DNA of 15,589 nt from a virus. The notes below the pieces were generated by a model, which had not been told where the DNA came from, ran no database searches, and saw only the letters and a program-made list of their open reading frames with translations. This document shows, in pieces, positions 1-15,589 of the stretch (position 1 is the stretch's first letter; every line of letters starts with the position of its first letter). A program made the translations under genes and the position numbers. Where the stretch lies: UHGV virus genome UHGV-0166683; one strand, 5' to 3'.

Positions 1-43
1 TACTTCTAAGAATGAAAGCATCGAAAAAATCCATATTTTCTTT

Positions 44-895
44 ATGTGGAAAGATATCCTTTCATTAATTTCTGATCATCATAACAGTGACTGCTCTGTC
101 TTATTTTTCACCAATGAAGACAAAAGTTATACAGTCGAACTCACGCATTTTTTACAATATAGCGAGATTAATCGCTTATCGAACTCGTCTCTTAAATATG
201 AAATTATAAAGGAGCTTCTCGACACAATAAAAATCAATGATTTACACAAAAGCGAGCGCAAGCTCGTTATACGCTCAGCCATAAACGAAGTATTTAAAGC
301 AAATGGTACGTTCAATTTCTTTGACTTGCTTAACTCTACTGAACTCGTCAGGAAAAAATATGATGAACTATATGAGATTTACACAAAGAGGTTTTCTGTA
401 AATAAAATTCTTAACGAACTCGATGAGAAAAATCTTGAGTTCACGAGTAAAATTAACGAATTCATATCATCTAATCAGACAAAAGCATTGACTATTCCCG
501 GTGCATTAATAGCAGCTGGTGGCTTAGTGAAGGCTAATGAAACAACCGAAGCAATATTGATTATCGCAGGACTTTGGATGATAAAAAAAGTCAATTACAT
601 TTCTATTGAGATATTCAATGAAACATTCGACAACTTACGTTCTCGAGTGGAGTCCGCTTTCGATAAGTATTTAAAGTTTGAAGAAAATAAAGAAATCAAA
701 GATAATGCAGATAGTATTAAGAGTAGCATTACAGGTTTGATTGATAAAGCTAAAAAAAGGATGAGAACTGTTAAATATCTCGCATCAGCCATGTTTTATG
801 GAGGCCTTATTTACGTTGGATATAAACAGTTCCCAGTCTTTTTTGAAAAATCGGCAGTAAATCTATTTTATTTTTTATGCCATACTATAAGCTAA
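44..895 (+). CDS. Hypothetical AT-rich membrane-associated protein, function unknown (possible prophage moron or flanking-island gene)
   Basis: 283-codon ORF in strongly AT-rich DNA, where long ORFs are unlikely by chance. Predicted hydrophobic hairpin (ALTIPGALIAAGGLVKA ... AILIIAGLWMI) and a C-terminal hydrophobic stretch. Frame is open back to window position 2, so the true start may lie upstream of the window. 3' end overlaps the Q-like gene convergently by 21 bp. No family recognised by eye. Confidence 0.5.
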   Translation: MWKDILSLISDHHNSDCSVLFFTNEDKSYTVELTHFLQYSEINRLSNSSLKYEIIKELLDTIKINDLHKSERKLVIRSAINEVFKANGTFNFFDLLNSTELVRKKYDELYEIYTKRFSVNKILNELDEKNLEFTSKINEFISSNQTKALTIPGALIAAGGLVKANETTEAILIIAGLWMIKKVNYISIEIFNETFDNLRSRVESAFDKYLKFEENKEIKDNADSIKSSITGLIDKAKKRMRTVKYLASAMFYGGLIYVGYKQFPVFFEKSAVNLFYFLCHTIS

Positions 896-4919: not shown

Positions 4920-5857
4920 CCCCTGAATCCTGCCGGGATCTGGCTGTAGTCCACATTGTCGTAACTGGATTTGAAGTACGGGTCTTCGCGTTTTTCGGTG
5001 TACGTGCTTACGGACGGCGATAAGCGCAGGGAAAGCTCATCCCATTTTTCCCGCAGCTTCGACGGGCTGAGCACGTTACGGCACCAGAACGGATCGCGGC
5101 TGACGCGGCTGTACATCTCGCAGATTTGTTTGTGAGTACGACCATCCTGCACACACATCAGGCGAATTTCGTTTGCCCAGGCTGTCCAGTTCGGTTCTTT
5201 GGGACGAACCACCTCGCCGTCACATTCGGCAGCCTGCTCGTACAGGGCGATGATTTTTTTCCAGAGCCACTGTGCGCAGGTCAAATCATCCTGCGTCCCC
5301 CACTGGCGCTTTTTAGGGCTGAATACAACCGCATCAGGATGGCGAGTTAAAAAATCCTGTTCAGCCGTCTGCGTGTCCGGTTGCGAAGCGTCCGGACGAG
5401 AAGGTTTTTTATCTGACGGATCATGTTTTGATTTTACTGACGGATCCCCGCCAGATTCTGACGGGTGAAAACCTGCTTTTTTGCCAGATTTCGACGCATC
5501 AAATTTTGACGGGTCAGATTTTGATGCGTCAGATTTTGACGGGTCAGAATCTGACAGTTGAGAAAATGCCGCTGCCTGAAGCTTCGCAACGTTAAGCTGA
5601 TAAACATTCGACGCATTGCGGTTACCCTGGCGACGCGCCTTACGCGTTAACCAGCCTTCTGCTTCCAGCCGTGCGATAGCCGTTCTGACGGTACTCATCC
5701 CCGCGCCAATCTGACGGGCAATGGTTTCAATTGATGGCCAGCACACACCTTCGTCATTACTGAAATCAGCCAGGCGGGCCATAATTGCCACGCTGGATAA
5801 CTTCATGCCTGATGCAGCGCAACCATCCCATACATAGCCGGTTAATTTAGTGCTCAT
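4916..5857 (-). CDS. Phage replication initiation protein (O-like; N-terminal HTH, repeat-encoded linker)
   Basis: 313 aa. N-terminal region (WPSIETIARQIGAGMSTVRTAIARLEAEGWL) is HTH-like as in phage replication initiators. A central low-complexity linker SDPSKSDASKSDPSKFDASKS is encoded by 15-bp tandem repeats. SD AGAGG lies 6 nt upstream of the ATG at 5857-5855. Confidence 0.8.
   Translation of the reverse strand: MSTKLTGYVWDGCAASGMKLSSVAIMARLADFSNDEGVCWPSIETIARQIGAGMSTVRTAIARLEAEGWLTRKARRQGNRNASNVYQLNVAKLQAAAFSQLSDSDPSKSDASKSDPSKFDASKSGKKAGFHPSESGGDPSVKSKHDPSDKKPSRPDASQPDTQTAEQDFLTRHPDAVVFSPKKRQWGTQDDLTCAQWLWKKIIALYEQAAECDGEVVRPKEPNWTAWANEIRLMCVQDGRTHKQICEMYSRVSRDPFWCRNVLSPSKLREKWDELSLRLSPSVSTYTEKREDPYFKSSYDNVDYSQIPAGFRG
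5411..5556. repeat. Iteron-like 15-bp tandem repeats inside the replication initiator gene (candidate origin of replication)
   Basis: Three tight tandem copies TTTTGACGGGTCAGA / TTTTGATGCGTCAGA / TTTTGACGGGTCAGA at 5504-5548, plus degenerate copies containing CTGACGGAT/CTGACGGGT at 5413-5421, 5437-5445, 5458-5466 and 5490-5498. Confidence 0.5.
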
Positions 5858-5866
5858 GACCGACCT

Positions 5867-6205
5867 CTATTTCCCTGAATTTACGACGAAACTGTTCGAG
5901 CGGACTGAAGCATTCATGCTCATAACCTTCGCGGAGGTAGATAACCCGTTGTGTTTCCGGTTCCCAACGAATGACTCTGACGGGCACTCCGTAGTGATCT
6001 TTGAACCAGCGGTTAACTTGTCGCAAAGGACTGCCTCCTTCTGCCGGTTGAAATCACCCACAGCCCACTCTGCAAAGCTGTGGGTTACAATTTCCCTGTC
6101 ACCTGGTACATTCACTGCATAGCAATACTCCACCTTCGCTTTTCCACCCGGAACCGGAAGCGCAATCAGTTGCGAGCGACGGTAGTGTGTTGTTAAACTG
6201 TTCAT
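5867..6205 (-). CDS. Hypothetical small protein (112 aa) between the CII-like and replication genes
   Basis: Start ATG overlaps the stop of the upstream CII-like gene (ATGA at 6202-6205) and its stop lies 9 bp before the replication gene start, consistent with operon membership. Composition is not strongly protein-like and a competing plus-strand ORF exists, so confidence is low. Confidence 0.35.
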
Positions 6206-6765
6206 GCGTTAGTTTCTCCACAGTCACGACACGCCACGGCGCCCGGAGCTGCACACTCGCGGGCGTCACTACTTTCTGAAACGCAAAAGATTTTGTAGAC
6301 CAGTGCTGCATGCTCCTGCAGCTTCGAAATTGAGAGGTACAGCTCGTCGTTAATTGCTGTCTTCTCATGCGGTTCCACTACACCGTCTTCGATTGCTGAA
6401 CGAATCTGTTTTGAATAACTGCCGATCTGTTCAATGACCTCCAGCAGGCGTTGGTTGATATCGGCATTGTCCACATCCTCGACGTCAGGAAGAGACACAA
6501 AGACGCCATTTGCAGACTGCGCCACAGCATCAGCAATGAAGTGAGTGCCACCAGCACGCTGCAAAACCATTGCCCATCCCAGCGGGAAAATCTGATCGCC
6601 ATCTGCACGAAGGCGGTTGAATAAAGCGTTTTCTGTTACATCGAGCCAGTCAGCCGCTTCAGCGTAACCACCCGGCAACGCCGCGATAGTTTTTCTGACA
6701 GCTTTCACGTACCACTCAGGCTGTTTTTCTATTTTCCAGTGATGCTTACCCACGATTAGCCTCAT
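6202..6765 (-). CDS. Phage regulatory protein, CII-like (CP76-type architecture)
   Basis: 187 aa, second gene after cro-like. N-terminal HTH-like segment ([37 protein letters not shown]) followed by a helical C-terminal region, an arrangement I associate with CP76-type CII regulators. Family assignment is from memory. Confidence 0.55.
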
Positions 6766-6796
6766 CGTTCTGTGGTTAAAAATTGAAAGTGTTCTG

Positions 6797-6997
6797 CTAA
6801 TCTTTCGGATAGATATCCGGTCTTAAGTCAGATTTCGTAATTGCACCTGATGTGTATTGCTCAAGTTTTTTAGCCAGCACAAAACTGGCTTTTTTATAGC
6901 CATTGAAAACCAGCCGTAAGTAGCCAGGTGTTGAGCCAACTTTTCCGGCCAACTCGCCCTGCTGTTCTTTGGTTAAAGAGTCCCAATACGCTTTCAT
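6797..6997 (-). CDS. Cro/YdaS-like HTH regulator (66 aa)
   Basis: MKAYWDSLTKEQQGELAGKVGSTPGYLRLVFNGYKKASFVLAKKLEQYTSGAI is a small HTH protein divergent from the CI-like repressor. Start chosen at ATG 6997-6995, preceded by GGAGG. The longer ORF to 7300 would overlap the cI-like gene and the operators. Confidence 0.65.
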   Translation of the reverse strand: MKAYWDSLTKEQQGELAGKVGSTPGYLRLVFNGYKKASFVLAKKLEQYTSGAITKSDLRPDIYPKD

Positions 6998-7087
6998 ACA
7001 ATATGTACCTCCGGTGTACATATTACATGATTGAAATGAACCTTCAAGATACTTGTACCTTAACGGTACAAGGGTTTTAATTTCGTT
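6998..7087. promoter_or_regulatory. Immunity control region (oR-like) between divergent cro-like and cI-like genes, with two 17-bp operators
   Basis: Two 17-bp sites of form TGTACC-N5-KGTACA: TGTACCTCCGGTGTACA (7004-7020) and TGTACCTTAACGGTACA (7054-7070). The second sits inside a perfect 8-bp-arm palindrome CTTGTACC-TTAAC-GGTACAAG (7052-7072). Candidate pR -35/-10 on the minus strand (CTTCAA 7042-7047, ATATTA 7020-7025 as written on plus). Confidence 0.5.
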
Positions 7088-7762
7088 ATGAAAACAATCC
7101 ATGACATCCGGCGGTCTAACGCCAGAAAACTGAGAGATGGTGTTGGCGGGAATTCTTCCTTTGCCACTATGATTGATCGCGAGCCAACCCAGACCAGCAG
7201 GTTTATGGGAGATGGTGCTACTAAAAATATCGGTGACAGCATGGCACGACACATCGAAAAATGTTTCGACCTGCCTGTAGGATGGCTCGATCAAGAACAC
7301 CAGACAACGAACATCACAAAAAAACCTGATGTTTCAATCACTAATAAACAAATCACATTAGTCCCTGTCATATCATGGGTACAGGCCGGAGCATGGAAAG
7401 AAGTTGGATATTCTGAGGTTGATTTGAGCACAGCAGAAACGTATCCCTGCCCTGTACCCTGTGGGGAAATGACTTATATCTTGCGGGTGATAGGTGATTC
7501 AATGATTGATGAGTACCGCCCGGGAGACATGATTTTTGTCGATCCTGAAGTACCTGCCTGCCACGGTGACGACGTTATTGCATTGATGCACGATACAGGT
7601 GAAACCACCTTCAAAAGGTTGATAGAAGATGGGACACAGCGTTATCTCAAAGCGTTAAACCCAAACTGGCCTGAGCCTTACATTAAGATCAACGGTAATT
7701 GCTCTATAATTGGTACTGTGATTTTCTCAGGAAAACCAAGAAGATACAAAATCAAAGCCTAA
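7088..7762 (+). CDS. CI-like prophage repressor (N-terminal HTH plus C-terminal S24 LexA-like autopeptidase domain)
   Basis: 224 aa. HTH-like N-terminus. C-terminal domain has an Ala-Gly cleavage-site candidate (VQAGAW), the catalytic Ser context (VIGDSM) and Lys context (TFKRL), typical of RecA-stimulated self-cleaving repressors. No SD before the ATG, so the mRNA may be leaderless as for lambda cI. Confidence 0.8.
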   Translation: MKTIHDIRRSNARKLRDGVGGNSSFATMIDREPTQTSRFMGDGATKNIGDSMARHIEKCFDLPVGWLDQEHQTTNITKKPDVSITNKQITLVPVISWVQAGAWKEVGYSEVDLSTAETYPCPVPCGEMTYILRVIGDSMIDEYRPGDMIFVDPEVPACHGDDVIALMHDTGETTFKRLIEDGTQRYLKALNPNWPEPYIKINGNCSIIGTVIFSGKPRRYKIKA

Positions 7763-7774
7763 TCAATGTTTATG

Positions 7775-7797
7775 AACCTGCTTCGGCAGGTTTTTTT
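7775..7797 (+). terminator. Rho-independent terminator downstream of the cI-like gene
   Basis: AACCTGC-TTCG-GCAGGTT: 7-bp stem with a TTCG tetraloop, running into a 7-T tract (7791-7797), 13 bp after the cI-like stop. Confidence 0.7.
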
Positions 7798-7801
7798 ATA
7801 C

Positions 7802-7829
7802 TTGACAATGTGCCTTTGAGATACATAAT
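7802..7829 (+). promoter_or_regulatory. Candidate sigma70 early-left (pL-like) promoter
   Basis: TTGACA (7802-7807), 16-bp spacer, CATAAT (7824-7829). An operator half-site TGTACC (7829-7834) abuts the -10, and a degenerate TGTGC-N7-ATACA lies in the spacer. Located just after the cI terminator and about 100 bp upstream of the first plus-strand early gene. Confidence 0.45.
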
Positions 7830-7935
7830 GTACCCAAGAGAAACAACAAACAGGCAGGACGCCCACGAAGTAGCCGCCTGGGGCATATGAAGTCCAGGAT
7901 GATTCGTTAGCGGATGATTTCAGTGGAGAGAATAG

Positions 7936-8244
7936 ATGAATGAGCAGGATTTGAAGCATGTGATCGCATTGTTGCTGGAAGACGCTAAACGTTTGCAGCA
8001 GATAGAGCCAAATGCAGGCACTGAGGCCCGTATTTTGTTAGCAAAACAGGCATTAAAGACTTGCGAGGCGCAAGACCCTGATCGAACCAAGTTCATGAAT
8101 TTCATGGCTAACACGATCACCCCACTGCCATGCAATGGAGAGAGGGTGAGCCGTGTTTATCACGACACAATGGTTAAGGCATTAAGAATCGAGCTTGATG
8201 GGCTTAGGCGTAAGATCGTGATGAACAAAATCGTTGCCAACTAA
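7936..8244 (+). CDS. Hypothetical early-left protein (102 aa)
   Basis: SD GGAGAG 7 nt upstream of ATG 7936; first ORF downstream of the pL-like promoter. No recognisable domain; not Arg-rich like lambda N. Confidence 0.5.
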   Translation: MNEQDLKHVIALLLEDAKRLQQIEPNAGTEARILLAKQALKTCEAQDPDRTKFMNFMANTITPLPCNGERVSRVYHDTMVKALRIELDGLRRKIVMNKIVAN

Positions 8245-10089: not shown

Positions 10090-10183
10090 ATGGAAACGTA
10101 ATTGACTCAATAATCGCCTGATGGCGAGGGTTTTCTTTAACCAAAATTCAGCGCGGTGCAGCGCATATAACGTGGAGAACAAA

Positions 10184-10720
10184 ATGTCATTTATTAAAAC
10201 TTTTTCCGGGAAGCATTTTTATTATGACAAGATAAATAAAGACGACATCGTTATTAACGATATCGCGGTTTCCCTTTCAAATATCTGCCGCTTTGCAGGA
10301 CACCTTTCACACTTCTATAGCGTCGCCCAACATGCGGTGCTTTGCAGCATGCTGGTACCGCAGGAATTTGCTTTTGAAGCATTAATGCATGATGCAACAG
10401 AAGCGTATTGCCAGGACATTCCCGCACCACTGAAACGCCTTCTTCCTGACTATAAACGGATGGAAGAAAAAATAGACGCCGTAATCCGTGAGAAATACGG
10501 GTTACCTCAGGCTATGAGCACGCCCGTGAAATATGCCGATCTCATCATGCTGGCAACCGAACGCCGCGATCTCGGGCTTGATGATGGCTCTTTCTGGCCA
10601 GTATTGGAAGGTATCCCGGCAACAGAGATGTTCGAAGTTGTTCCTCTGGCTCCTGGCCATGCCTACGAGATATTTATGGAACGTTTTAAAGAGCTGCATA
10701 AGATACATAAGCAATCCTGA
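10184..10720 (+). CDS. yfdR: YfdR-like HD-domain protein (5'-deoxynucleotidase family)
   Basis: 178 aa from ATG 10184 (SD GGAG 6 nt upstream; ORF track begins at 10121). HD-domain motifs present: H..H (GHLSHFYSVAQHA) and HD (LMHDATEAY). Confidence 0.75.
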   Translation: MSFIKTFSGKHFYYDKINKDDIVINDIAVSLSNICRFAGHLSHFYSVAQHAVLCSMLVPQEFAFEALMHDATEAYCQDIPAPLKRLLPDYKRMEEKIDAVIREKYGLPQAMSTPVKYADLIMLATERRDLGLDDGSFWPVLEGIPATEMFEVVPLAPGHAYEIFMERFKELHKIHKQS

Positions 10721-10775
10721 CAGCGAAATTAACTAGTGAAATAGTTTTGTAGCAAAAGAAATGAGGTTATCAAAA

Positions 10776-11021
10776 ATGCTTCAAATGCTGACACTTGAGG
10801 AATGGGCTGCGGAAAAATTTAGGAGTAATCCTCCAAGTGTGTCCACATTGCGTCGTTATGCTAAGCAGAATTTATTTTGTCCACCAGCAATGAAACAAGG
10901 TCGACTCTGGCGAGTACGTGAGGACGCAGAGTTAGTTGGGGAATTAGTTACTCCAGTAATCAAGAAAAGTGATTCTATTATTCTGCAAAGGATTTTAAGC
11001 AATGGCAGCCAGACCACGTAA
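10776..11021 (+). CDS. xis: Excisionase (lambda Xis-like)
   Basis: MLTLEEWAAEKFRSNPPSVSTLRRYAKQNLFCPPAMKQGRLWRVREDAEL parallels lambda Xis (MYLTLQEWNARQRRPRSLETVRRWVRE..FPPPVKDGREYLFHESA). Overlaps the int start by 20 bp as in lambda. Start ambiguous among ATG 10761, 10776 and 10785. Confidence 0.75.
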   Translation: MLQMLTLEEWAAEKFRSNPPSVSTLRRYAKQNLFCPPAMKQGRLWRVREDAELVGELVTPVIKKSDSIILQRILSNGSQTT

Positions 11022-12129
11022 AAATAATGTTTCAGTACCTAACTTGTATCCGCTTTATAGTAGAAAAGTAAATAAAGTCTATTGGCGATATAAGCATCCA
11101 GTGACCGGGAAATTTCATTCGTTGGGCACAAATGAAGCTGAAGCTATTGCTATTGCCACTGAAGCTAACACTCGTCTGGCTGAGCAAAGAACCCGGCAGA
11201 TTCTAGCTATCAGTGATAGGATCGCAACCAGCAAAGGAAAAGCGATCACAACGTCAACCTGGTTAGATCGCTATCAAGCGATCCAGGATGACAGGCTCAA
11301 AAGTGGTGATATAAGACTCAACACCTATAAGCAAAAAGCTAAACCAGTATCCTTGCTCAGAGAACGAGCAGGAATGAAGTTGATCTCATCCGTTGATGTT
11401 AGAGATATAGCACAATTGCTTGATGAGTATATTGCAGCTGGACAGCCTAGAATGGCCCAAGTCGTTAGGTCTGTATTGATCGATGTGTTTAAGGAAGCAC
11501 AGCATTATGGCGAAGTTCCGCCAGGGTATAACCCTGCTCTTGCGACGAAGCAACCCAAAAGAAAAATTACCCGTCAACGCCTCAGCCTGGAAGAATGGCA
11601 AAAAATATTCGATATAGCAGACGCCAGTCATCGTTACATGGGAAATGCCATGCTCCTAGCTTTGGTCACTGGGCAGCGTTTGGGAGATATATCCAAAATG
11701 AAATTTAGTGATATTTGGGAAGATCATCTTCACGTCATTCAGGAAAAGACTGGAAGCAAAATCGCTATCCCTCTTTCTCTTCGCCTCAATGCGATTAACT
11801 GGAGTTTACGCGATGTAATAGCCCGCTGCCGTGACTATGCAGTCAGCCCATACCTAGTGCATTTTTTCCGTTCAACTTCACAAGCAGAACGTGGGGCACA
11901 GGTTAAATCCAATACATTGACGATGAACTTTAGTAAAGCGAGAGATTTAGCAGGAATTGACTGGGGTGATGGCTCACCCGCAACATTCCATGAACAAAGA
12001 TCGTTATCTGAACGCCTGTACAAGGAGCAAGGGATAGATACCAGAAAGCTACTTGGGCATAAAACACAACAACAAACCGATCGTTACCATGATGACCGAG
12101 GGAAAGGTTGGAGCAAAGTAGCTTTGTGA
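11002..12129 (+). CDS. int: Tyrosine site-specific integrase (lambda Int family)
   Basis: 375 aa. C-terminal catalytic region HEQRSLSERLYKEQGIDTRKLLGHKTQQQTDRYHDDRGKGW matches lambda Int (HELRSLSARLY ... LLGHKSDTMASQYRDDRG), including the conserved His and catalytic Tyr. Preceded by and overlapping xis. Confidence 0.9.
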   Translation: MAARPRKNNVSVPNLYPLYSRKVNKVYWRYKHPVTGKFHSLGTNEAEAIAIATEANTRLAEQRTRQILAISDRIATSKGKAITTSTWLDRYQAIQDDRLKSGDIRLNTYKQKAKPVSLLRERAGMKLISSVDVRDIAQLLDEYIAAGQPRMAQVVRSVLIDVFKEAQHYGEVPPGYNPALATKQPKRKITRQRLSLEEWQKIFDIADASHRYMGNAMLLALVTGQRLGDISKMKFSDIWEDHLHVIQEKTGSKIAIPLSLRLNAINWSLRDVIARCRDYAVSPYLVHFFRSTSQAERGAQVKSNTLTMNFSKARDLAGIDWGDGSPATFHEQRSLSERLYKEQGIDTRKLLGHKTQQQTDRYHDDRGKGWSKVAL

Positions 12130-12340
12130 GCGTTTAAGTTTCTCAATCCCACATTAATTATCTCATCACACATGTAACAGGCCCAAACAGACTGCTCTGA
12201 GCGACGAACCGTTGTTGACCAGTAACGCCATAGAGTATATTCAGTAAGTGTTCCAATGTATATAAGAAATGCGCTGTGTATATTTTTAATTCAAAATAGT
12301 TTGAAGCACAATCATGAAACAGATTCTTATGAATACAAAA

Positions 12341-13456
12341 TTAAATTAAATCAAATAGCCCATGTTCATCTATAGCCTTTGAACTAATTAAGTTCGCGGC
12401 TTCTATGTCATTGTCACTTGCCTCAGAAATAAGGAAAAATGAATCAACATGATTTTGCAAAATAATTTCCTTATACTTCTTGAGCCATTGTAATTTACCT
12501 GTAGTGAACAATACTTTACGCGGTAGCAAAATACGGCTAAAAACTGATGGAAGATACTCACTTCTATTAAATGGAATAAAAGGGTCGCCTAAAGAAAGAA
12601 TAGTTAGACGATTAAATTCACCGTGCGAATTCAATTTTTCAGCTGATTTGGCTATACCACTTGGTAAAAAAACACCTGTCTTGATACCGTTGCGTAAAGC
12701 AACAACAGCCATCATTTTATCAAAGGCAGTACCTCCAAATAATAAGGAATATCCTTTTTTAACAGAAAGATCAATAGTATCAAGAACAACTTGTTTTTCT
12801 ATATCACTTGGTGACGTGCTCGAAATTATCGAAAGATCAAAATCAGTAAATAACTGCCCAGTATAATAAAGATTTTTGCCGGTGAAAGTTGACAACTTTA
12901 AAGGAAACATTTTATCATCATGCTTAATTTCAGATACATTAAGATCTGTTAAGGATGGATAGTTAAAGTTTGGTGAGGCTTTTCCGTGTTTATTATTTTT
13001 TGATGCCTGCGGACTAAAAACTAGAATTTCATTTTTATTATTACACAGGTAATCCTGTATCATTTTTTTTACAATATCCCAATCAAGACCACCGTGACCA
13101 CAACCTAAAGCTGGCAGGGTGATTGTTTTTCCATGTTTATTATCCAAATATTTCGAGAGCCAATGCAGTCCTTTTTCGATATATTCGTACTTAGACTTAT
13201 TTCTCCAATGATCCTTGGTGGGAAAGTTTATGATTTCTATTTCCTTACCATACGTATCATTACCTTTCCAAACAGCTGGTCTTCCTGGAGATATTTCTCC
13301 TTTTTTACACAGCAATACGTATTCATTATACATTTCAGGAAACTTATTCTTAAAAGCAAAAGCAACCCCTGCCCCCATTACACCAACACAATTAACTGTA
13401 TTAATTCTAATGTCAGCAGCATAATCGAAAAAATCACCATCAACATATCTAATCAT
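12341..13456 (-). CDS. darG: DarG-like macrodomain protein (putative antitoxin; N-terminal macrodomain plus about 200-aa C-terminal domain)
   Basis: Start chosen at ATG 13456-13454 with strong SD AGGAGG (ORF extends to 13582). N-terminal region GDFFDYAADIRINTVNCVGVMGAGVAFAFKNKFPEMY ... IINFPTKDHWR ... LPALGCGHGGLDWD matches the DarG/TARG1-type macrodomain as I recall it from M. tuberculosis DarG. AT-rich gene. Confidence 0.7.
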   Translation of the reverse strand: MIRYVDGDFFDYAADIRINTVNCVGVMGAGVAFAFKNKFPEMYNEYVLLCKKGEISPGRPAVWKGNDTYGKEIEIINFPTKDHWRNKSKYEYIEKGLHWLSKYLDNKHGKTITLPALGCGHGGLDWDIVKKMIQDYLCNNKNEILVFSPQASKNNKHGKASPNFNYPSLTDLNVSEIKHDDKMFPLKLSTFTGKNLYYTGQLFTDFDLSIISSTSPSDIEKQVVLDTIDLSVKKGYSLLFGGTAFDKMMAVVALRNGIKTGVFLPSGIAKSAEKLNSHGEFNRLTILSLGDPFIPFNRSEYLPSVFSRILLPRKVLFTTGKLQWLKKYKEIILQNHVDSFFLISEASDNDIEAANLISSKAIDEHGLFDLI

Positions 13457-14163
13457 AAAACCTCCTTTGGTCAGAGTATACATCCTTATTTCTGGCTCTT
13501 CAATTCTATTGTCAAAAACTTTTACAAAGTCTGCATCAGTAAAACTGATGGCGCATTTTAAAATTAAAATCAATATGTCCATATCAAACGTTATATTTGT
13601 TATTTTTTGTATTTATTATTCATATCCATCATGTGCTATTAAATCGCCCAAAAGAACATAATAAATTATGTGCACCACTTTCTTCTTATTGAATTTTGGA
13701 TTACATTACGATCTAAATTAGATCTTTTGCCAATATCATAAACATATGCAGCAAACGTTGCAACAAGCTGTTCTCATTCTAACAGTTAGTAGAATATAAA
13801 CTCTGTAATTAGCACACTGAATTCCCTTCATCTATGAGTTACAACATCCTTTAAGTGAATAGTATTGTTAGTTTAAATCTATTAATATCATTCATAAAAC
13901 TATTTTATATAGTTAAAGTCATTATAAATCCATCTGAATATATACAGATGGATTCTGCCAATAGTCTTTGCAGGTGAAGTGCATGTTATATATTTTTTAG
14001 GGAATATATTTTCTAATTATTTCTCAGATAAAAATTTGCAGAACGAAATTACTTTACATAATACCGAATGTTACAGATTATTTTATTGCATATAAGCATT
14101 GAACTAACCACTATCACAGTGACTATGTTAATCATAAAATCTGCATCAAATTCAAAAAGCTCC

Positions 14164-15510
14164 TCATAAACTGTTCCCCTGCAATCTTTGGAGAACTTCA
14201 TCCCGGAGATCATCGATCCCGTCAGAAACCTGAGCTAACCAAACTTGACTTAATGAGCCAATATCAGCCTTACTTAGGGCTACTAACATATTGATATCTT
14301 CAGAAGATGTAACTATATCGAACAACTGATTTTTATTCCTCCCTTTAGCTACTATTTCCCCCAATAAATCATCATACGTAACTAACATCATTATTTTTCT
14401 AACTAGATCGGTTTGTATGACTGGCAGATCTTCTGTCAAAATTCGTTGTAGCATCGCAAGTGACTTCCTAGGATGCTCTCCATCTGCCTCATGCATGTAA
14501 TTATTATTCCAACGTGTTTTAGGCCCTTTGCCTATATCATGCAAATAAGCGGCCAACTCCAAAACTTCCTGATGAATAGAGTCTAATTGATAAAACTCTG
14601 GTGAATTAACTACAAGACTAGCCACTCGTCGACTATGAGAGCCAACATCTTCATTATGAGGCCCGTAGCTCGTCCCCAATCCATCGATATCTTCAAGCTC
14701 TTGGATGGAGGAGAAATTACCACGAATTGCACTTAGAGCATCACTAATACTTTGAAATTTTGGCCTCGTTTCTCGTTGAAATGAAGTTACATATTCAATA
14801 GCTTCATCAAAAAGCATTTTTAACACTACCGGTCCCGTGACTAAGGATGAGGACCAGTTTCCAGGTTGATAATAATAATGTTGAAAATCACCCTCAACAA
14901 TATTTGGTGGAACAATACCTTTGTTCTGGAAAATACTCCTCACAATATCAGACATAGAACGATTCCATGTAATTATCTGATTTATTTCGCTTAAAGAGAC
15001 ATGATCTGGCAGCAAAAGTTCTGCCATCTTTTTATGCCTCTGAGTCTCGTCAGCATAACCCCATGCATTATTATCTATGGTAGCCCAATCTAATACATCA
15101 AGCTGGTCAGCTTGAGTATTACCAGAATAAAAGTTCGGTGGATTAACTGTATTTGCGGAAGCATCTGTAAAATATGACCCATTCCTTGTTTCGAGTGATA
15201 ATATAGAAACTGAAAGATAGATAATAAATTGCTGATCTACATTTTTTTTATGAAGAACAGACAATTGCATGGGCGTTTTTTTTGCAAAATAAAAAGGAAC
15301 ATAATCATGAACACAACGACCATTCGTATTAGGCACCTGCATCACTGCCCTACGCCCCTGTATTCCTTCATCAGCAACATTCACATGTGATATACGACGT
15401 GCAATTTTCTGATTAGTCGAAAACAGCCCAGTTTCAATTATTGATTCAAGATTATCTACTGACGTAAAGTGATATGCATTTCGGTGTCTATGGTGAACAG
15501 GAACTGTCAT
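14164..15510 (-). CDS. darT: DarT-like DNA ADP-ribosyltransferase (DUF4433) fused to a C-terminal HD-phosphohydrolase-like domain
   Basis: N-terminal about 215 aa carries DarT hallmarks: YHFTSVDNLESIIETGL, HDYVPFYFAKKTPMQ, and the catalytic-Glu context KKMAELLLPDH (compare Mtb DarT HFTHVDNLPSIL, GDYVPFYFGPRSPM, RRMAEFLLRGH). C-terminal about 230 aa contains HD-domain motifs SHSRRVASL ... LELAAYLHDIGKG (HD codons at 14541-14536). AT-rich gene. Confidence 0.7.
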   Translation of the reverse strand: MTVPVHHRHRNAYHFTSVDNLESIIETGLFSTNQKIARRISHVNVADEGIQGRRAVMQVPNTNGRCVHDYVPFYFAKKTPMQLSVLHKKNVDQQFIIYLSVSILSLETRNGSYFTDASANTVNPPNFYSGNTQADQLDVLDWATIDNNAWGYADETQRHKKMAELLLPDHVSLSEINQIITWNRSMSDIVRSIFQNKGIVPPNIVEGDFQHYYYQPGNWSSSLVTGPVVLKMLFDEAIEYVTSFQRETRPKFQSISDALSAIRGNFSSIQELEDIDGLGTSYGPHNEDVGSHSRRVASLVVNSPEFYQLDSIHQEVLELAAYLHDIGKGPKTRWNNNYMHEADGEHPRKSLAMLQRILTEDLPVIQTDLVRKIMMLVTYDDLLGEIVAKGRNKNQLFDIVTSSEDINMLVALSKADIGSLSQVWLAQVSDGIDDLRDEVLQRLQGNSL

Positions 15511-15525
15511 GTACTGATGAATCCC

Positions 15526-15549
15526 CTAATGATTTTGGTAAAAATCATT
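15526..15549 (-). promoter_or_regulatory. Perfect 10-bp-arm inverted repeat 16-39 bp upstream of the darT-like start (candidate operator or 5'UTR hairpin)
   Basis: TAATGATTTT-GGTA-AAAATCATTA (arms 15526-15535 and 15540-15549), immediately upstream of the SD-like GGGGA and the ATG at 15510. Confidence 0.4.
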
Positions 15550-15589
15550 AAGTTAAGGTGGATACACATCTTGTCATATGATCAAATGG

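Follow-up and report, generated by a model that had tools for sequence, protein, structure and literature searches.

A DarT-HD toxin paired with a macrodomain-DprA-like antitoxin: a probable variant DarTG2-class module in an e14-type prophage

The window (the whole stretch of DNA analyzed, 15,589 nt of the virus genome UHGV-0166683) contains two minus-strand genes that probably constitute a variant toxin-antitoxin module of the DarTG2 class, carried as cargo by an e14-type prophage. Judging from its sequence, the product of the gene at 14164-15510 is a DarT ADP-ribosyltransferase fused to an HD(IG) phosphohydrolase domain; that of the gene at 12341-13456 is modeled as a macrodomain of the DarG type joined to a domain with the DprA fold. 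By analogy with characterized DarTG systems, such a module probably functions in defense or addiction.

A sequence-only reading of this DNA had recognized two minus-strand genes in an AT-rich segment, the first for a DarT-like ADP-ribosyltransferase that has an additional domain and the second for a DarG-like macrodomain protein. Both ORFs are indeed found at these coordinates, and the GC content over 12001-15500 is 0.28 to 0.38, versus 0.43 to 0.56 in the prophage body. The HMM searches and structure prediction that it proposed as checks agree with its assignments: both N termini match the respective DarT and DarG models, and the predicted structures fit a domain-extended DarT-like toxin beside a macrodomain protein of the DarG type.

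Toxin with DarT and HD domains

14164..15510, minus strand: darT-HD toxin gene of lineage A, an intact ORF of 448 aa
14872..15474, minus strand: DarT ADP-ribosyltransferase domain (residues 13-213; catalytic E164; R53/R54, H14, and Y74)
14167..14658, minus strand: HD (HDIG-type) metal-dependent phosphohydrolase domain with a helical tail (residues ~285-448)

The 448-aa protein matches the Pfam DarT family (PF14487) with an E value of 5e-40 over residues 13-213, the PADLOC DarT model with an E value of 1.4e-42, and the Pfam HD family (PF01966) with an E value of 2.8e-6 over residues 290-361. Its score against the NCBIfam DarT equivalog NF048013 is 135.4 bits, under the cut-off of 150. The protein has the DarT/DUF4433 ART fold together with its catalytic Glu and NAD+/DNA-binding Arg. 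Specifically, E164 (in KKMAELLL), which the sequence-only reading had singled out as the putative catalytic residue, aligns with the catalytic Glu160 of Thermus DarT, the residue mutated to Ala in 7omv, and R53/R54 correspond to the Arg51 position of that enzyme. The AF2 model has a pLDDT of 91.9 and a pTM of 0.84.

The DarT domain is more similar to DarT2 than to DarT1, with an identity to the short DarT2 enzymes of only 20 to 27%. The whole toxin is 72 to 77% identical to those encoded in Vibrio, Xanthomonas, Nitrosomonas, Idiomarina, and Aeromonas (loci L004-L007, L009, and L011). Characterized DarT proteins consist of a single domain of ~210 aa, to which a linker and the HD domain are added here; the departure from the canonical toxin architecture, suspected from the letters, thus takes the form of a conserved HD/HDIG phosphohydrolase. 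The HD fold contains the H...HD...D metal-binding motif, with H292, H324-D325 (HDIGK), H346, D380-D381, and D416 as the key residues; it is a second, predicted catalytic domain. The closest structural match is the region of a tRNA nucleotidyltransferase that binds nucleic acid, and the fold is also similar to those of signaling phosphodiesterases such as HD-GYP, PgpH, and GppA. A profile search of PDB sequences reveals no close characterized relative of this domain.

Antitoxin with macro and DprA-like domains

12341..13456, minus strand: macro-DprA-like antitoxin gene of lineage B, 371 aa, with a Shine-Dalgarno sequence, AAAGGAGG, at 13461-13468
12977..13456, minus strand: DarG/TARG1-type macrodomain (residues 1-160; N22, and K81 in an FPTK motif)
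12344..12949, minus strand: DprA-fold (SLOG/Rossmannoid) C-terminal domain (residues ~170-371)

The antitoxin ORF, 12341-13582, spans 413 aa. Its true start is M43 at 13456, which yields the 371-aa product already assumed in the sequence-only reading: AAAGGAGG is found 4 nt upstream of this codon, and every homologue begins at the corresponding Met. The N-terminal part, and only this part, matches DarG, with an E value of 6.6e-58 for the PADLOC model (positions 1-160 of 329) and 1.9e-66 for the NCBIfam model (positions 1-162 of 338), the latter at 224.7 bits, under the cut-off of 250. The TARG1-type macrodomain has the catalytic Lys (K80 in Taq) and the Asn (N22); in the alignment of homologues, N22 is invariant and K81 almost invariant. 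The AF2 model of the antitoxin has a pLDDT of 85.6.

Model coverage in NCBIfam and PADLOC, the fold, and hhalign all indicate that the C-terminal DarT-binding domain of canonical DarG is absent. A divergent version of that domain was considered and rejected, as hhalign gives a probability of 0.2% against the canonical DarG of Bacteroidales. The relative in locus L004 aligns across 324 of the 338 positions of the NCBIfam DarG model, gaining ~30 extra bits. In the predicted structure, the C-terminal domain of the antitoxin adopts the Rossmannoid DprA fold. The window antitoxin does not match the Pfam DprA family (PF02481), to which 22 of 46 homologues show weak matches (best E value, 1.1e-6), and a PDB-sequence profile search with the domain does not retrieve DprA; in the PDB searches with the HD and DprA-like domains, matches to CFTR (E of ~0.5) are noise. 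Since the link to DprA consists of the fold and these marginal Pfam matches, binding of ssDNA or RecA is a prediction. Used as a single-sequence query against 1.84 billion representatives, this domain retrieves just 22 proteins; apart from one marginal match of 546 aa, these are proteins of 370 to 382 aa with the same architecture and short fragments, and the domain has no other clear context in that set.

Relation to known systems

In DarTG2 (DarT2 with the macrodomain protein DarG2; Thermus aquaticus, Mycobacterium tuberculosis, and EPEC), the toxin is half the length of the one described here and, in contrast to it, lacks the conserved linker and the HDIG phosphohydrolase domain. In the window antitoxin, the DprA-fold domain replaces the DarT-sequestering C-terminal domain of DarG2. 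Both window proteins score under the NCBIfam DarTG equivalog cut-offs. In the canonical DarTG2 operon, darT is located directly upstream of darG and overlaps or is coupled to it, whereas in the window the two genes keep this order and are separated by a long spacer and derived from different lineages.

DarTG1 (DarT1 with a NADAR antitoxin; E. coli C7) shares with this pair the ART family and uses, as this pair is predicted to, reversible DNA-base ADP-ribosylation for phage defense; its hallmarks, a NADAR-domain antitoxin and a guanine-specific DarT1, are not found in the window pair. ShosA, a DprA-like antitoxin of type IV that binds both ssDNA and RecA (PMC11961720, PMC12961424), has no sequence-level similarity to the window antitoxin and carries a SAM domain rather than a macrodomain; its cognate toxin, ShosT, is a phosphoribosyltransferase rather than an ART. 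The SidE-family effectors, which combine mART and PDE domains, are another near known system.

Hybrid origin of the operon

13928..14162, minus strand: decayed relic of macro(A), the 5' part (residues ~10-96) of the toxin's original partner
13475..13925, minus strand: decayed relic of darT-HD(B), the 3' HD half (residues ~262-438) of the antitoxin's original partner
13475..13503, minus strand: putative antitoxin promoter, TTGAAG-17 nt-TATACT, within the darT-HD(B) relic

The gene order is that of canonical darT-darG, and the unusual spacing, both remarked upon in the sequence-only reading, amounts to 707 nt from the toxin stop to the antitoxin ATG, because the spacer is made up of two pseudogene relics. 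The relic of macro(A), which takes in a spurious 54-aa ORF (14049-14213), is detected by tblastn with an E value of 1.5e-5 using the macro proteins of loci L004, L005, L006, L009, and L011 as queries. The alignments pair ELFEFDADFMINIVTVIVV with DFFEFDADIMINTVNCVGV and MHFTCKDYWQNPSVYIQMD with INFPTKDHWKNPSEYYYID and include a stop and deletions; in blastn, the relic is 68 to 70% identical to the junctions of toxin end and macro start in L004-L006.

The relic of darT-HD(B) aligns at the DNA level with the intact gene of E. coli LR-28 (locus L002) and is found by tblastn in two frames (E values of 2e-12 and 8e-11) with five in-frame stops; the motif AAYLHDIGK has become AAYVYDIGK. The last 42 codons of this relic account for the residues by which the 413-aa ORF is falsely extended at its N terminus. 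The relic is 85% identical to its counterpart in Citrobacter (locus L003), a divergence close to dS. The antitoxin is 85% identical to the macro protein of LR-28, but the toxins of these two loci share only 43% identity; overall, lineages A and B are 43 to 48% identical. As the spacer holds the remains of both macro(A) and darT-HD(B), these alignments show the operon to be a hybrid of two ancestral operons, with toxin A placed beside antitoxin B.

Compared with the Citrobacter copy, the toxin has a dN/dS of 0.29 and the antitoxin one of 0.16; the lowest value within the toxin, 0.11, is that of the linker. By this measure, both genes have been under purifying selection since the hybrid arose. 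The darT-HD(B) relic probably retains the antitoxin promoter: the candidate hexamers TTGAAG and TATACT match the consensus at 9 of 12 positions, and neither differs among the two relics (window and Citrobacter) and the intact LR-28 gene, whereas the stretch that separates them varies. Promoter and terminator scans of the locus perform at chance level.

IS10 insertion and toxin expression

15514..15589, plus strand: outside end of IS10/ISVsa5, first 76 nt; the element runs beyond the window
15559..15589, minus strand: 3' half of the RNA-OUT of IS10, transcribed from pOUT toward darT-HD (Rfam RF00240)

An IS10 end, which the sequence-only reading did not mention, occupies positions 15514-15589, 3 bp upstream of the darT-HD ATG. 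It is an exact match to the IS10 termini in E. coli strains C9 and 1000C-3, where these adjoin a transposase of the ISVsa5 family. The RNA-OUT match (33.5 bits, model positions 40-70) ends at the window edge, and the full RNA-OUT at the same position in a complete IS10 scores 98.8 bits. A truncation artifact, considered because strain 181.1 has no counterpart, was rejected: the window end aligns with the IS copies, and 181.1 has no IS10.

By its position, the insertion cuts the toxin gene off from its native promoter and Shine-Dalgarno sequence in this genome. The native upstream sequence, with a GGGGGA Shine-Dalgarno, is preserved in locus L001; in the IS10 allele, the nearest similar sequence is AGGGGA, 11 nt away from the ATG. 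The promoter pOUT of IS10 is able to drive adjacent genes, and toxin expression would now rely on pOUT read-through and this badly spaced site. Expression in the IS10-carrying genome is probably reduced, and the toxin may be silent in this strain. In the sister strain MDR_56, darT is split by IS50R and the macro gene is intact. The IS insertions thus strike the toxin alone, either just ahead of its start or within it, a pattern that would be expected of a toxic gene and that lends indirect support to toxicity.

These observations lend themselves to another reading, in which the module is a decaying, silent remnant whose toxin ceased to be expressed once IS10 removed its promoter and Shine-Dalgarno and whose antitoxin merely persists. 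The relics in the spacer, the disrupted MDR_56 allele, and the rarity of the locus (7 of 5,426 complete E. coli genomes) all point in this direction. However, both ORFs of the window are intact and identical to those of the seven genomes, which are free of the IS and align with the window only as far as 15513; each gene has a dN/dS far lower than 1, and pOUT is oriented into the toxin gene. As IS10 is absent from every complete genome with the locus, its insertion seems recent. A silent remnant is therefore possible, if rather less than probable.

Location within the e14-type prophage

11002..12129, plus strand: intE, the lambda-type integrase of an e14-like prophage (Pfam Arm-DNA-bind_1, 2e-37; Phage_integrase, 1.4e-17)
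10761-11021: xisE (Pfam Exc, 1.8e-12)

The sequence-only reading placed the pair next to int, which is correct, and attributed this to an island at the att site, which is not: the pair is cargo inside the prophage, flanked by intE on one side and by the conserved icd-proximal end of e14 on the other. RefSeq annotation shows intE/xisE adjoining icd. A tRNA or att site beside int as the reason for the location was set aside as superfluous, icd being the integration site of this e14-like element.

In the e14 of E. coli K-12, the same cargo slot is occupied by lit, annotated as "cell death peptidase Lit." It is a T4-exclusion gene, and Lit acts in phage exclusion by abortive infection. Lit and the products of ymfD-ymfE share with the DarT-HD module this slot, which is bounded by intE and the icd-proximal end of the prophage, but the proteins and their mechanism are unrelated to it. 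The int-proximal slot of e14-type prophages therefore appears to swap abortive-infection cargo, with IS elements repeatedly striking the toxin gene.

The position directly beside int/xis would also suit a pair that serves mainly for addiction, stabilizing the prophage or its cargo slot through post-segregational killing on excision, rather than for phage defense. DarT-HD relatives are found on plasmids too, and a DarTG system hindered deletion of its host element in Vibrio cholerae (PMC11481870). The occupation of the K-12 slot by lit argues against this, as do canonical DarTG1 and DarTG2, which are demonstrated defenses (summarized in PMC11543638 and PMC11825919), making a mainly stabilizing role unlikely. 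For the window pair itself, a predicted defense role is backed by context, namely the slot held by lit in K-12 and the matches to the PADLOC models. The two roles can coexist.

Phyletic distribution of DarT-HD

A search with DarT-HD retrieves 958 proteins at E values of ≤1e-5, the weaker of which may cover the DarT domain alone; the 120 listed among them are full-length or fragmentary relatives. DarT-HD genes are found in 79 genome loci from Proteobacteria, Firmicutes, Bacteroidota, Planctomycetota, and one archaeal MAG. A macro gene follows in 73 of the 79, abutting or overlapping the toxin gene in 64, where the macro domain starts at -19 to +79 nt from the toxin ORF end. Among 81 sequences from many phyla, E164, R54, Y74, and D69 of the DarT domain and H292, H324-D325, H346, D381, and D416 of the HD domain are each retained in at least 95%, and the catalytic Glu in all 81.

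Short DarT proteins pair with the canonical DarG C terminus, whereas DarT-HD pairs with macro proteins bearing other C termini, a DprA-like domain having taken the place of the toxin-binding one. Among these loci, canonical DarG C termini are seen only in Bacteroidales, beside an extra short DarT; there, DarT-HD lacks its own macro partner and is encoded upstream of a complete canonical DarT and DarG. This arrangement agrees with a neutralization that relies on macro activity instead of a dedicated binding domain. The DarT-HD gene is not found in 50,697 deposited phage genomes. The literature searched, with the paper that defined the DarTG2 of E. coli outside its scope, contains no description of the DarT-HD architecture or of a DprA-like domain on DarG, and no experiment on any DarT-HD protein; the mechanistic work in it deals throughout with single-domain DarT and with either NADAR or a DarG that carries the sequestering domain. 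DarT-HD is a widespread and apparently unstudied architecture.

Proposed mechanism and the role of the HD domain

Few systems both write and erase a modification of DNA bases; DarTG, one of them, is under development for genome editing. By analogy, the DarT domain would use NAD+ to ADP-ribosylate bases of ssDNA. Because this domain is nearest the thymidine-specific DarT2 and has a macrodomain partner, thymidine is the probable target. The modified DNA would block replication, with the HD(IG) domain presumably providing a second catalytic activity on the nucleic acid or the ADP-ribose adduct. The DarG-type macrodomain would strip ADP-ribose from DNA. Its DprA-fold companion, predicted to bind ssDNA and possibly RecA, might bring this eraser to the lesions or aid recombinational repair in the manner of ShosA; ADP-ribosylated DNA lesions are repaired by RecF-mediated recombination (PMC7003065). 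Neutralization would then be mainly enzymatic, similar to that of type IV antitoxins, so a hybrid operon would be tolerated. The module probably acts as an abortive-infection-type phage defense, a prophage stabilizer, or both. The window represents a natural experiment, in which a toxin and an antitoxin of different lineages are kept jointly under purifying selection; such a pair predicts enzymatic, non-cognate neutralization.

A further-reaching view, which we regard as doubtful, treats these systems as a third, mechanistically distinct class of DarTG, with a two-step toxin and a two-module repair antitoxin that neutralizes without touching the toxin. After ADP-ribosylation of ssDNA by DarT, the HD domain would cleave a phosphodiester of the adduct or the DNA backbone, the adduct giving, for example, phosphoribosyl-thymidine, as in SidE chemistry; the antitoxin would combine an ADP-ribose eraser with a DprA-like ssDNA/RecA loader. 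If true, this would explain both the natural recombination of lineages that are 43 to 48% identical in a hybrid operon and the sharing of the neighboring canonical DarTG's DarG by DarT-HD in Bacteroidales.

Instead of a second effector, the HD domain might be an intramolecular regulator or sensor that keeps DarT off until infection, e.g., a nucleotide-binding or -hydrolyzing switch that replaces the DarT-sequestering C-terminal domain of canonical DarG. The clean correlation between toxin length and type of antitoxin C terminus fits such a role, as do the fold similarity to signaling phosphodiesterases, the strong constraint on the linker, and the AF2 pTM, which suggests rigid packing of DarT, linker, and HD domain. 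However, the complete conserved metal-binding set suits catalysis equally well, and the best structural match is a nucleic-acid-binding region, so that a purely regulatory HD domain seems improbable. Another reading makes the HD domain a nuclease of ssDNA like Cas3 and thereby the principal toxin, with DarT only directing it or marking DNA for it. This is highly improbable: Cas3 resembles the domain no more closely than numerous other HD families do, the partner is invariably an eraser of ADP-ribose rather than a nuclease inhibitor, and the DarT catalytic Glu is conserved in all 81 sequences.

Architecture of the toxin-antitoxin pair

The module lies in AT-rich DNA (GC content 0.28 to 0.38 over 12001-15500, versus 0.43 to 0.56 in the remaining prophage). 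ORF calls and this GC profile bear out the two intact minus-strand genes proposed in the sequence-only reading, which had missed the IS10 end.

12341-13582, minus strand: antitoxin ORF in its longest form, intact, 413 aa
14164-15510, minus strand: toxin ORF (darT-HD), intact, 448 aa
15514-15589, running past the window end: outside end of IS10/ISVsa5, exact match, 3 bp upstream of the darT-HD ATG
15559-15589, minus strand: 3' half of RNA-OUT, within the IS10 end

The toxin is a DarT2-like ADP-ribosyltransferase with intact catalytic residues and an additional HD domain with a conserved metal site. HMM searches agree with the predicted DarT-like enzyme carrying an extra domain: residues 13 to 213 match the Pfam DarT family (PF14487; E = 5e-40), residues 290 to 361 match the HD family (PF01966; E = 2.8e-6), and the PADLOC DarT model is matched at E = 1.4e-42. 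On the NCBIfam DarT equivalog model the score is 135 bits, under the cutoff of 150. The AF2 model is confident (pLDDT 91.9, pTM 0.84). Glu164 in the KKMAELLL motif, previously suggested to be the catalytic residue, indeed occupies the position of the catalytic Glu160 in the alignment with Thermus DarT, in which Arg53 pairs with Arg51. A PDB search with the HD domain gave no sequence-level relative. In 81 sequences, Glu164, Arg54, Asp69, and Tyr74 of the DarT domain and His292, His324, Asp325, His346, Asp381, and Asp416 of the HD domain are each conserved in at least 95%, so both domains are very probably catalytic.

The antitoxin is a DarG-type eraser. Its true start is Met43 at 13456, yielding a protein of 371 aa, the length first proposed: a Shine-Dalgarno sequence, AAAGGAGG, lies 4 nt 5' of this codon, and all homologues begin at the same Met. 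The RefSeq models (410 and 413 aa) are too long and begin within a pseudogene relic. The expected DarG-like macrodomain is found at the N terminus, which is of the DarG/TARG1 type; both the PADLOC DarG model (6.6e-58, positions 1 to 160 of 329 only) and the NCBIfam one (1.9e-66, 224.7 bits, cutoff 250, positions 1 to 162 of 338 only) are covered by the macrodomain half alone. The place of the sequestering domain of canonical DarG is taken by a DprA-fold domain (pLDDT above 90; 85.6 for the whole AF2 model). A canonical DarT-sequestering C terminus was ruled out by comparison with canonical DarG proteins covering the full length of the NCBIfam model (hhalign probability 0.2%). The macro partner of a lineage A toxin at locus L004 (6338-7483) matches positions 1 to 324 of the 338 in NCBIfam DarG and passes the cutoff with 259 bits; its C-terminal domain, however, is of the DprA-like family, for which hhalign shows no similarity to canonical DarG C termini. 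Heterogeneity of the model seed may be behind this extended match.

Hybrid origin of the operon

The spacer between the two genes consists of relics of two others. E. coli LR-28 has a 444-aa DarT-HD gene and a 371-aa macro gene that overlap by 4 nt. Alignment of the two loci shows that 13475 to ~13925 of the window is the decayed 3' HD half from a toxin gene of the LR-28 type (tblastn 2e-12 and 8e-11, two frames, five stops), in which AAYLHDIGK has become AAYVYDIGK. Its last 42 codons (13457-13582) are in frame with the macro gene, thus creating the false 413-aa ORF, and lie outside the antitoxin proper. The adjacent segment, 13928-14162, corresponds to decayed residues ~10 to 96 of a different macro gene (E = 1.5e-5), of the type that accompanies the window toxin lineage in Vibrio, Xanthomonas, Nitrosomonas, and Aeromonas. 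Protein identities to the window pair confirm that two lineages meet in one operon.

Identity of related pairs to the window proteins
Lineage A (L004 to L007, L009, L011): toxin 72-77%, macro protein 44-48%
Lineage B (LR-28): toxin 43%, macro protein 85%

The relics and the identity matrix together define the order darT-HD(A), macro(A) remnant, darT-HD(B) remnant, macro(B). This order is most simply explained by two tandem operons that lost ~1.6 kb or more between them to a deletion, or by a comparable illegitimate recombination event. Citrobacter sp. Cu233 has this hybrid too (92% nucleotide identity). Since the Citrobacter split, dN/dS has been 0.29 for the toxin and 0.16 for the antitoxin, whereas the relics have diverged by 15%, close to dS (0.13 to 0.16), indicating that both genes have been under selection while in the hybrid. 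At 13503-13475, TTGAAG and TATACT, separated by 17 nt, form a candidate antitoxin promoter (-35 and -10). These hexamers are unchanged in the darT-HD(B) relics of the window and Citrobacter and in the complete gene of LR-28, whereas the bases between them vary; the promoter scan as a whole was at chance level.

Insertion sequences at the toxin gene

IS10 splits the darT-HD ORF from its native GGGGGA Shine-Dalgarno sequence and promoter. The Shine-Dalgarno-like sequence nearest the ATG is now AGGGGA, 11 nt away within the IS terminus, and pOUT is directed into the gene. The insertion probably changes darT-HD expression, most likely lowering it. Of 5426 complete E. coli genomes, seven have a locus 100% identical to that of the window, and none of the seven has IS10 at darT-HD. 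In one of them, MDR_56 (L085, 3535-6424), IS50R splits the DarT domain and the macro gene is intact; RefSeq names the toxin halves "DarT family" and "HD domain-containing protein." Two independent insertions affecting the toxin and none affecting the antitoxin form an asymmetry expected of a toxic gene.

Phyletic distribution and partners

The DarT-HD search retrieved 958 proteins at E ≤ 1e-5, and the antitoxin search 2739; every DarT-HD match listed (120 of 958) is either a full-length relative or a fragment with this architecture. A genome scan yielded 79 DarT-HD loci from Gamma-, Alpha-, and Deltaproteobacteria, Bacteroidota, Firmicutes, Planctomycetota, Chloroflexi, and one archaeal MAG. 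Downstream of the toxin, 73 of these carry a macro gene, and in 64 of the 73 the macrodomain starts -19 to +79 nt from the toxin ORF end. The partner C terminus is variable, with the DprA-like domain in 36 loci. Giant partners of 1160 to 1450 aa with an N-terminal DarG-type macrodomain are found in nine (L021, L022, L027, L032, L033, L041, L044, L054, and L063). Seven Bacteroidales loci (L023, L028, L038, L047, L058, L073, and L080; ~5000-8050) encode, in this order, DarT-HD, a canonical short DarT (171 bits), and a canonical full-length DarG (371 bits; both NCBIfam), so that DarT-HD supplements a DarTG2 system that is already complete. Six of the 79 loci have no macro gene, and five of these are from Chloroflexi (L074, L075, L077, L078, and L079). 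These orphans retain Glu164 and the HD motif but have substitutions at the Arg53 and His68 positions, and may act on another substrate or with another partner.

Predicted mechanism

PADLOC and RefSeq already name these genes DarT-family and macro-domain proteins, so the kind of system is known. Canonical DarTG2 combines a single-domain equivalog toxin with the DarG C-terminal domain; the window pair has neither and instead carries two added domains, HD and DprA-like. This architecture is not categorically new, but it is widespread and apparently unstudied: none of the papers searched describes DarT-HD, although a system already tested could still be of this type.

Single-stranded DNA (ssDNA) is the predicted target of ADP-ribosylation by DarT-HD, with thymidine the probable base, and the macrodomain would reverse the modification. 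The lack of a canonical toxin-binding domain in the antitoxin suggests that neutralization is mainly enzymatic, which fits the hybrid operon, the variable partner C termini, and the Bacteroidales DarT-HD without a macro gene of its own. The hybrid operon thereby yields a sharp prediction that experiments can test, namely that neutralization is enzymatic and works between non-cognate partners. ShosA, a DprA-like type IV antitoxin, requires ssDNA and RecA binding (PMC11961720, PMC12961424), and RecF-dependent recombination repairs ADP-ribosylated DNA lesions (PMC7003065). By analogy, the DprA-like domain may direct the eraser to ssDNA or aid RecA loading. The HD domain may act on the ADP-ribose pyrophosphate (in a two-step chemistry like that of SidE), on ssDNA, or on a regulatory nucleotide.

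Genomic setting

The order xisE-intE-macro-darT-HD-icd in strain 181.1 identifies an e14-type prophage integrated in icd. The pair does adjoin the integrase gene, as the sequence-only reading had it, but lies inside the prophage rather than in an island beyond the att site. The K-12 e14 feature begins within icd, with ymfD, ymfE, and the cell death peptidase gene lit between that end and intE, and the ~125 bp adjoining icd in 181.1 are also kept in K-12-type e14. The module is thus interchangeable prophage cargo, occupying the slot that holds lit in K-12.

A second AT-rich cargo (window 1-895; 374-2766 of L001, a locus that keeps the native darT-HD upstream region; GC 0.32 to 0.35) lies between the Q antiterminator and a lambda-type holin. 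One of its genes, immediately to the left of the window, specifies an NA37/NdpA-like nucleoid-associated protein (Pfam, 1.2e-23). The other, for a 404-aa protein without Pfam or PADLOC matches, has its last 283 codons at 44-895; the two could form another accessory or defense pair. Just upstream of xisE, the early region encodes the small prophage HD-domain protein YfdR (10121-10720), which has a weak match to YfbR-like 5'-deoxynucleotidases (5.7e-5) and is unrelated in sequence to the toxin HD domain.
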